64,000 bases of DNA. Origin: Escherichia coli. Its GTDB lineage: Bacteria > Pseudomonadota > Gammaproteobacteria > Enterobacterales > Enterobacteriaceae. The stretch lies in NCBI RefSeq assembly GCF_003334305.1, contig NZ_QOWS01000015.1; one strand, given 5' to 3'. A program made the translations under genes and the position numbers. The notes beneath the pieces were generated by a model. That model did not search any database, was not told the origin of the DNA, and saw nothing but the letters and a program-made list of their open reading frames with translations. Positions 41,970 through 43,855 of the stretch are shown piece by piece. How positions within the stretch are numbered: position 1 is the stretch's first letter; each line of letters starts with the position of its first letter.

Positions 41970-42677
<708 letters not shown>

Positions 42678-42758
42678 TACATTCAGCCCGCGTTGTCGCG
42701 GGCTTCCCACTTGTAATCCTCCCTGATTTTTCTCTGATATGGTGCTAAAAAGTAACCA

Positions 42759-42783
42759 ATAAATGGTATTTAAAATGCAAATT
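42759..42783. promoter_or_regulatory. NsrR-like operator upstream of yeaR-yoaG
   Basis: AAATGGTATTTAAAATGCAAATT resembles the NsrR inverted-repeat consensus AAGATGCATTTnAAATACATCTT. Confidence 0.45.
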
Positions 42784-42849
42784 ATCAGGCGTACCCTGAA
42801 ACGGCTGGAATAAACCGTTTTCAGCGCATTCCCCGAAGGAGGGAATAGG

Positions 42850-43209
42850 ATGCTGCAAATCCCACAGAATTATATTCATACGCGCTCAACGCCTTTCTGG
42901 AATAAACAAACTGCGCCTGCCGGAATATTCGAACGTCATCTTGATAAAGGAACGCGCCCGGGGGTTTACCCACGCCTTTCCGTTATGCATGGGGCGGTCA
43001 AATATCTCGGCTACGCTGATGAACACAGTGCAGAGCCTGATCAGGTGATCCTTATCGAAGCGGGGCAGTTTGCGGTGTTCCCTCCAGAAAAGTGGCACAA
43101 CATTGAAGCCATGACTGACGATACTTATTTCAACATTGACTTCTTCGTGGCTCCTGAAGTCCTGATGGAAGGTGCGCAACAACGGAAAGTCATTCATAAC
43201 GGGAAATGA
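42850..43209 (+). CDS. yeaR: DUF1971 protein YeaR (nitrosative-stress inducible)
   Basis: 119-aa ORF; synteny. Confidence 0.9.
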   Translation: MLQIPQNYIHTRSTPFWNKQTAPAGIFERHLDKGTRPGVYPRLSVMHGAVKYLGYADEHSAEPDQVILIEAGQFAVFPPEKWHNIEAMTDDTYFNIDFFVAPEVLMEGAQQRKVIHNGK

Positions 43210-43212
43210 ATC

Positions 43213-43401
43213 ATGGGCAAAGCAACGTATACCGTGACCGTCACCAATAACAGCAATGGCGTTTCTGTCGATTATGAAACAGAGACGCCGATGACTTTGC
43301 TGGTGCCAGAAGTGGCGGCTGAAGTGATAAAAGATTTGGTGAATACCGTGCGTTCTTATCCGGTGCGCCGTAAAACCCCGTCCTTCAGGGCGGGGATATA
43401 A
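43213..43401 (+). CDS. yoaG: Small protein YoaG; 3' end appears to run into the IS left end
   Basis: 62-aa ORF starting 4 bp after yeaR; last ~15 codons overlap the predicted IS left-end hairpin. Confidence 0.75.
   Translation: MGKATYTVTVTNNSNGVSVDYETETPMTLLVPEVAAEVIKDLVNTVRSYPVRRKTPSFRAGI
43374..43397 (+). repeat. Predicted IS left-end subterminal imperfect hairpin
   Basis: CCCCGTCCTTCAGGGCGGGG; core 18-mer CGTCCTTCAGGGCGGGGA matches the right-end copy 16/18 in direct orientation. Confidence 0.45.
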
Positions 43402-43416
43402 GGCGCGGTTTTCCAC

Positions 43417-43848
43417 CTAACCAGGTGTTTGCTGTTGTTCAATGTATTGGCGGATGACGGATATTGGCGCACCTCCGCAGCTACTGGCAAAATAGCCAGG
43501 ACTCCACAAAACGCCTTTGTAGTAATACCTGACTGCAATATCTGGTCGATCTCGTCGCAGTAACCTACCCGATACGCCTTTGAGGCTGTTTACCAGACTG
43601 GATATCGCCAGTTTGGGAGGATAGTTAATTAACAAATGGACGTGATCTGGTTCGCCATCCATTTCAACAAGTTCAGCTTCAAAATCAGCACATACATTTG
43701 AAAAGTAAGTGCGTAGTTTTTCTGTCGCGTCATGGTCAAAAATCTGGAGTCGGTATCTGGTGACAAAGACCAGGTGAACATGCATCAGGAAAACACAATG
43801 CCTTCCACGCCGGATATCGGTTTCTTTTTTCACAGACCAAAGTATCAT
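43417..43848 (-). CDS. tnpA: IS200/IS605-family Y1 HUH transposase TnpA
   Basis: 143-aa ORF with HUH motif (PDHVHLLI) and catalytic-Tyr helix (GGAPISVIRQYIEQQ). Confidence 0.85.
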   Translation of the reverse strand: MILWSVKKETDIRRGRHCVFLMHVHLVFVTRYRLQIFDHDATEKLRTYFSNVCADFEAELVEMDGEPDHVHLLINYPPKLAISSLVNSLKGVSGRLLRRDRPDIAVRYYYKGVLWSPGYFASSCGGAPISVIRQYIEQQQTPG

Positions 43849-43855
43849 TTGACCT

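Follow-up and report, generated by a model that had tools for sequence, protein, structure and literature searches.

Gene Order at the Locus

The region of interest belongs to the Escherichia coli chromosome: a 2.7-kb query was 100% identical to strain A7 (NZ_CP028767), where RefSeq annotates on this stretch dmlA, dmlR, leuE, yeaR, a DUF1869 protein, tnpA (IS200/IS605 transposase), the InsQ/TnpB RNA-guided endonuclease and yeaQ. The whole stretch of DNA analysed, 64,000 nt in length and hereafter called the window, is a chromosomal segment carrying dmlA, dmlR, leuE, yeaR, yoaG and yeaQ. The host genes discussed here are the following:

42039-42677, plus strand: leuE (window ORF list, in agreement with the RefSeq annotation of A7)
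42850-43209, plus strand: yeaR, 119 aa, DUF1971, with a TehB-like N-terminal region (ORF list and RefSeq annotation of A7)
43213-43401, plus strand: chimeric yoaG, designated yoaG', 62 aa, with residues 1-49 of native YoaG and residues 50-62 (PVRRKTPSFRAGI) from the IS609 left end (translation)
45108-45143, plus strand: displaced native end of yoaG, 11 codons and stop (DTENEHDVCGW*), whose rejoining restores YoaG
45291-45539, plus strand: yeaQ (window ORF list)

The NCBIfam match of the yeaR product to TehB is weak.

An IS609 Copy Inside yoaG

The insertion that splits yoaG was delimited by comparing five copies of the element and an empty site. Its parts are:

43356-43359, plus strand: TTAT target, directly 5' of the IS left end, found in front of five out of five copies
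43360-45107, plus strand: IS609 (IS200/IS605 family), 1748 bp, starting with CCGGTGCGCC and ending with GGATGTCAA
43376-43395, plus strand: left-end subterminal imperfect hairpin CCCCGTCCTTCAGGGCGGGG, inside the yoaG' tail (RNA fold; single copy in the window)
43417-43848, minus strand: tnpA (insP), Y1/HUH transposase, intact ORF of 143 aa with stop TAG (NCBIfam NF033573)
43856-45064, plus strand: tnpB (insQ), RuvC-type RNA-guided endonuclease, with the annotated GTG start at 43856 (NCBIfam NF040570; RefSeq)
44991-45107, plus strand: probable scaffold of the omega-RNA, which shares sequence with the 3' end of tnpB, extends as far as the right end and includes the right-end hairpin
45078-45097, plus strand: right-end hairpin CCTCGTCATTCAGGGCGTGG (located by sequence)

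The element is an ordinary IS609, with all the defining features of the IS200/IS605 family. It shares 98.2% identity over 1748 bp with the tnpA/insQ element lying beside ydcO in K-12, of which insQ has been named as IS609 transposase B and insP as transposase A (PMC6033998). TnpA matched NF033573 (transpos_IS200; E 6e-42, 142.8 bits, cut-off 55), with the HVH motif and the C-terminal Tyr visible in the translation, and TnpB matched NF040570 over nearly its full length (guided_TnpB; E 5e-115, 384.8 bits, cut-off 100). The two end hairpins are alike, imperfect and both on the plus strand, and there are no terminal inverted repeats. At five loci, the IS609 copies invariably follow TTAT and end with GGATGTCAA (TCAA), with no target duplication; they start with CCGGTGCGCC, apart from one copy that starts with CTGG. 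The yoaG copy is flanked by TTAT and GACACGG, which do not repeat each other; the empty site consists of exactly these two flanks joined, as in strain C11 where GTGCGTTCTTAT runs directly into GACACGG; a check of the junctions in both empty and occupied sites agreed with the order TTAT, IS, GACACGG. No second IS609 end was found within the window. The element would have entered by the single-strand 'peel and paste' route of its family, 3' of TTAT, in yoaG after codon 49.

A sequence-only reading of the same DNA had placed the IS at the 3' end of the yeaR-yoaG operon. The element does adjoin yoaG, but it lies inside the coding sequence, after codon 49, and not after the operon. The last 11 residues of YoaG are thereby swapped for 13 encoded by the IS, while residues 1-49 of yoaG' are identical to YoaG of PDB 1NEI; RefSeq labels the product as a DUF1869 protein and not as a pseudogene. 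Joining nt 43213-43359 to nt 45108-45143 restores the 60-aa YoaG, ending with ...RSYDTENEHDVCGW. Among 5426 complete E. coli genomes, a 593-bp synthetic query for the empty site was contiguous in 4318; the occupied form was present in 1096, and its left junction in 1100. The yoaG::IS609 insertion is a lineage allele, carried by about 20% of these genomes.

The tnpA gene is intact in the yoaG copy and disrupted or stop-less in the four other IS609 copies. The K-12 (ydcO) and yedK copies have an internal stop in tnpA, and in the copies at TetR and yfeD the stop codon reads CAG, RefSeq marking the gene as a pseudogene. Compared with the yoaG copy, IS609 of K-12 has the same divergent tnpA/tnpB layout, the same end sequences, TTAT at its left flank and TCAA at its right end; it follows a terminator and its tnpA has an internal stop, whereas the yoaG copy lies inside a coding sequence with an intact tnpA. 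As for tnpB, translation more likely starts at an ATG (43916) placed behind AGGAG (43905-43909) than at the annotated GTG. The latter is only 7 bp away from the ATG of the divergent tnpA, while a start at 43916 would leave a divergent control region of 67 bp. A sigma-70 consensus scan of nt 43700-44000 returned no convincing promoter for either tnpA or tnpB. Two TTGACC boxes flanking ATTTAAAT (approximately nt 43844-43902), picked by eye as possible IS promoters, were discarded, neither having an acceptable -10.

The 3' part of the element (44991-45107) is probably the scaffold of the TnpB omega-RNA, as suggested by its position and by two Rfam matches, both of them below threshold: RAGATH-18 (nt 44991-45034) scored 29.5 bits against a gathering score of 44.9, and HgcC (nt 44997-45120) scored 15.4 bits against 50. 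By analogy with other members of the family, TTAT is presumed to be the TnpB TAM, and the guide would be the adjoining flank GACACGGAAAACGAAC... (45108-45127, its first ~20 nt), which would match uninterrupted yoaG next to TTAT. A published study reports that TnpB is able to process the mRNA encoding it into its guide RNA (PMC10278001).

The organization of IS609 resembles that of IS608 of Helicobacter pylori and of ISDra2, which serve as models for the mechanism of this family. Each end has a subterminal imperfect hairpin, both of them on one strand, the encoded proteins are TnpB and a Y1 HUH transposase, and insertion takes place 3' of a short specific target with no duplication. The right end of IS608 finishes with TCAA as that of IS609 does, and the targets of IS608 and ISDra2 are TTAC or TTGAT, compared with TTAT for IS609. 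Unlike in IS608 and ISDra2, tnpA of IS609 is inverted relative to tnpB, so that the left-end hairpin comes to lie downstream of tnpA. In IS200 of Salmonella, a terminator hairpin at the left end, together with the antisense RNA art200, limits tnpA expression and shields the gene from outside transcription, the hairpin being upstream of tnpA and blocking the transcription coming in. IS609 would share the general principle, but its tnpA is inverted, a run of U follows the hairpin on no strand other than that of tnpA, and any antisense RNA would have to come from a host promoter.

The yeaR Promoter and Its NsrR Operator

The regulatory sequences between leuE and yeaR are:

42753-42768, plus strand: NarL 7-2-7 activator site TAACCAATAAATGGTA, centred at -43.5 (PMC10853779, located by sequence)
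42761-42783, plus strand: NsrR operator AAATGGTATTTAAAATGCAAATT, a 23-mer with an 11-1-11 imperfect inverted repeat, corresponding to the yeaR site of Table 4 in PMC5320621
42769-42774, plus strand: -35 hexamer TTTAAA (from the -43.5 anchor)
42792-42797, plus strand: -10 TACCCT, after a 17-bp spacer (from the -43.5 anchor)
~42804, plus strand: inferred yeaR transcription start, a G (derived from the -43.5 anchor)

An NsrR-like operator upstream of yeaR, proposed in the sequence-only reading, was borne out, both by a published site identical over the 23 nucleotides and by the highest matrix score of the window. The 23-mer is the one given by Mehta et al. 2015 (Table 4) as the predicted NsrR site of yeaR in CFT073 (PMC5320621). 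Relative to the segment first delimited (42759-42783), the site is present but shorter, as two extra bases had been included at the 5' side. Its end is 66 bp away from the yeaR ATG (42850) on the upstream side, and the distance from its centre is 78 bp, in fair agreement with the distance of about 70 bp formerly indicated. The identity of the operator is already known rather than new here: in two papers, both after Lin et al. 2007, NsrR regulation of yeaR is stated as known (PMC5320621) and the yeaR-yoaG locus is put under the control of NarL and NsrR (Conover et al. 2016; PMC4959519). In Salmonella, yoaG serves as a marker of the NsrR regulon. The K-12/CFT073 operator and the one in the window share the 23-mer, the gene, the distance to yeaR and the overlapping NarL 7-2-7 site, and no difference exists in the operator itself; only the strain background differs, carrying IS609 in yoaG.

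To score the site, a matrix was derived from the 16 distinct ChIP-seq-positive NsrR sites of CFT073 (Table 4, PMC5320621), symmetrised and with yeaR left out, so that the test of the yeaR operator is not circular. The yeaR 23-mer scored 21.2 bits and ranked first among 63,978 positions of the window, followed by a runner-up with 12.5 bits; its score falls between the lowest and the highest values of the sites used for training (12.9-30.4 bits). When 64-kb sequences were simulated 200 times with a first-order Markov model, their best scores had a mean of 13.9 +/- 2.1 bits, and 21.2 bits was reached in 1% of them. Sixteen of the 23 positions are self-complementary. The idealised NsrR palindrome AAGATGCATTTNAAATGCATCTT had no match across the window at up to 3 mismatches, indicating that the yeaR operator is a degenerate site; by hand count it departs from the palindrome at 6 positions. 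The operator motif is thus real and well beyond chance.

Two lower-ranking matrix hits were attributed to chance, both scoring less than the simulated 64-kb maximum of 13.9 bits: the runner-up (43689-43711) lies inside the IS, and the fifth best (43866-43888; 9.4 bits) lies in the tnpA/tnpB divergent region.

The anatomy of the promoter was anchored on the NarL site, for which the cryo-EM study of the NarL activation complex (NarL-TAC) gives both the 7-2-7 sequence at yeaR and the centre at -43.5 (PMC10853779). In a relaxed hexamer scan, the -35 and -10 hexamers matched at 7 of 12 positions, a poor agreement that is expected because the promoter is activator-dependent. With respect to the inferred start, the operator spans -43 to -21, with its centre at -32, and overlaps the right NarL half-site as well as the -35 hexamer. 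No difference from a K-12 MG1655 derivative was seen between about -65 and a point ~50 nt into the leader, and since the promoter core is identical to that of K-12, results obtained in K-12 carry over directly. A Fis site is said to have been placed over the yeaR NarL site by Squire et al. in 2009. The induction of yeaR and yoaG by nitrate in CFT073, about 160-fold (PMC5320621), points to a very strong promoter when induced.

The 175-bp region upstream of yeaR (42678-42852) differs at one leader position between the window and strain C11, which has the empty site, and the C11 region has the same variants relative to K-12 as the window. This likeness indicates that occupied and empty alleles coexist in closely related backgrounds.

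Transcription Across the Insertion

On the minus strand, the left-end hairpin folds with -11.2 kcal/mol and is followed by UUUUAC. The hairpin and UUUU together make a plausible intrinsic terminator of tnpA, and judging from the sequence efficient termination is likely on this strand. The candidate terminator ends at about nt 43372, some 10 nt short of native yoaG sequence; tnpA transcripts would mostly stop there, and their overlap with yoaG' would be limited to its final ~30 nt, in the tail encoded by the IS.

The plus strand differs, as neither a hairpin/tail scan nor folding identified a canonical intrinsic terminator from yoaG' to tnpA. The left-end hairpin is more stable in this orientation (-16.1 kcal/mol), with AUAUAAGG after it and no U-tract. 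The candidates found between yoaG' and the tnpB start, and the first canonical terminator, are:

43414-43427, plus strand: weak terminator-like candidate, 5-bp hairpin after the yoaG' stop, tail UUUGCUGUUGUU (-5.4 kcal/mol)
43809-43821, plus strand: weak terminator-like candidate, tail UUUCUUUUUUC (-4.1 kcal/mol)
43853-43871, plus strand: weak terminator-like candidate (-7.9 kcal/mol)
45553-45578, plus strand: first canonical plus-strand terminator, past yeaQ, tail UAUUUUUU (-17.6 kcal/mol)

An efficient stop by intrinsic termination between yoaG' and tnpA is, on this evidence, unlikely on the plus strand. A further hairpin is present in the native yoaG-yeaQ spacer (45159-45181, plus strand; -16.6 kcal/mol, z = -4.7); it is followed by A7 and has no U-tail on either strand, and is hence not a canonical terminator.

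No translation would be expected over the ~515 nt that separate the yoaG' stop from the likely tnpB ATG (43916), and Rho could act on such an antisense RNA. The C/G ratio of the plus-strand RNA, 1.16-1.31 over nt 43440-43600, is not diagnostic in this respect; a Rho loading site was sought in the C/G profile, which was too flat to call one.

The position of the element with respect to host genes also bears on its exposure. The K-12 and gltX/yfeD copies of IS609 lie directly behind host T-tracts resembling terminators, GATGGCGCTTTTTAT and CCGTTTTTTATTTAT respectively, while the yoaG copy and the copy splitting a TetR gene sit inside a coding sequence and are therefore exposed to host transcription, the yoaG copy to an unusual degree. 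The published expression data bearing on read-through come from strains lacking the IS. The neighbouring gene c2201 of CFT073 was up 142-fold along with yoaG (PMC5320621), which is only a hint of transcription past yoaG, if c2201 is downstream; in UTI89, a small ORF after yoaG, and yeaQ as well, were not co-induced with yeaR-yoaG (PMC4959519).

As tnpA is inverted relative to tnpB, read-through on the plus strand is antisense to tnpA and sense to both tnpB and the guide-RNA region, this last orientation having been overlooked in the sequence-only reading. Induced yeaR transcripts, deprived of the native 3' region, would meet no canonical terminator; some of them probably continue antisense through tnpA, and those reaching further would have the sense orientation for tnpB and the guide RNA. 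Whether induced antisense transcription over tnpA would be detectable is, as far as can be judged from the DNA, a matter of roughly even odds.

Discussion

The yeaR-yoaG promoter is best regarded as NarL-activated and Fnr-independent, with the 23-mer as its known NsrR operator. NsrR, a repressor of the Rrf2 family, carries a NO-sensitive [4Fe-4S] cluster. Bound [4Fe-4S]-NsrR would cover the right NarL heptamer together with the -35 hexamer, shutting out both NarL and RNA polymerase, and, going by this position, repression by occlusion and by competition with NarL would be the natural mechanism. On exposure to NO, nitrosylation of the cluster would cause NsrR to depart, and phospho-NarL at -43.5 would then recruit the polymerase through the alpha C-terminal domain. 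We hold the identity and the anatomy of both the operator and the IS, as described here, to be correct with a probability of about 0.9.

Against this, the resemblance to NsrR sites might be incidental, the AT-rich stretch being nothing else than the NarL half-site, a Fis site and the -35 region, and the induction of yeaR by NO being indirect. The stretch does share positions with both the NarL 7-2-7 site and the -35 hexamer, it has 6 mismatches to the idealised palindrome, and no NsrR peak was seen at yeaR by ChIP-seq in CFT073, an absence that its authors judge to be a probable false negative (PMC5320621). Such a coincidence is nevertheless very improbable in view of a score that is the best in 64 kb by about 9 bits, with a matrix from which the yeaR site was excluded, of the induction of yeaR and yoaG, among the strongest under NO-generating conditions (PMC5320621), of the regulation by both NsrR and NarL that two papers report after Lin et al. 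2007 (PMC5320621, PMC4959519), and of the use of yoaG as an NsrR-regulon marker in Salmonella. Only slightly greater is the chance we give to the insertion having been co-opted, with the yeaR promoter, in response to nitrate or nitrosative stress, running tnpB and the guide RNA while silencing tnpA by antisense, and the allele persisting for this reason. The orientation of the genes would fit, plus-strand read-through being antisense to tnpA and sense to tnpB; moreover, no host terminator precedes the yoaG copy, unlike the K-12 and gltX/yfeD ones, its tnpA is intact, the allele occurs in about 20% of genomes, and TnpB can derive its guide from the mRNA encoding it (PMC10278001). The same frequency is explained equally well if a neutral insertion was passed on vertically within a single successful lineage, IS609 has the same structure elsewhere, at many sites, and the sequence of the yoaG copy bears no mark of modification. 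That nitrosative stress, by way of yeaR read-through, lowers tnpA through convergent antisense transcription and raises tnpB and a guide RNA targeting uninterrupted yoaG next to TTAT in yoaG::IS609 strains is a similarly slim prospect; if true, it would couple a host stress signal to the RNA-guided retention of IS609.

A much more serious contender, to which we assign somewhat less than an even chance, is that the IS is transcriptionally insulated, so that there is no meaningful antisense interplay. The yeaR-yoaG' transcripts would stop at the left end or just past it, by means of the left-end hairpin, of the weak hairpin with a U-rich tail at nt 43414-43440 or of Rho, and tnpA transcripts would stop at the hairpin followed by UUUU; the only effects of the insertion would then be an altered YoaG C-terminus and the loss of yeaR-to-yeaQ co-transcription, if any. 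In favour of insulation, Rho and NusG are factors that keep antisense transcription down in E. coli, and the ~515 nt of untranslated RNA have a modest excess of C over G. On the plus strand the left-end hairpin is stable (-16.1 kcal/mol), and the yoaG' stop is followed by the 5-bp hairpin, whose tail is UUUGCUGUUGUU; on the minus strand, the hairpin of -11.2 kcal/mol has its UUUU. Consistent with such a stop, UTI89 showed no induction downstream of yoaG (PMC4959519). On the other hand, the plus-strand hairpin runs into AUAUAAGG with no U-tract, the remaining candidates on this strand are weak (-4 to -8 kcal/mol), and the 142-fold induction of c2201 together with yoaG in CFT073 would mean, if that gene is downstream, that transcription passes the yoaG stop (PMC5320621). 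Convergent transcription at the yoaG-tnpA junction, as put forward in the sequence-only reading, is thus compatible with the sequence and plausible.

Taken as a whole, the insertion is an already known element, its site is common and specific to a lineage, and its crosstalk with the yeaR promoter a reasonable hypothesis of modest consequence. The operator is of little importance beyond annotation, the yeaR promoter being already in use as a nitrate/NO biosensor and as a model for NarL activation. The lineage carrying the allele departs from K-12 in the yoaG product as well as in the 3' untranslated region, the last 11 codons having been moved 1.75 kb away. The yoaG copy of IS609, which has no host terminator ahead of it and lies behind a promoter that ranks among the most inducible of the cell, would offer a convenient natural case for studying any effect of outside transcription on the expression of TnpA and TnpB in the IS200/IS605 family.
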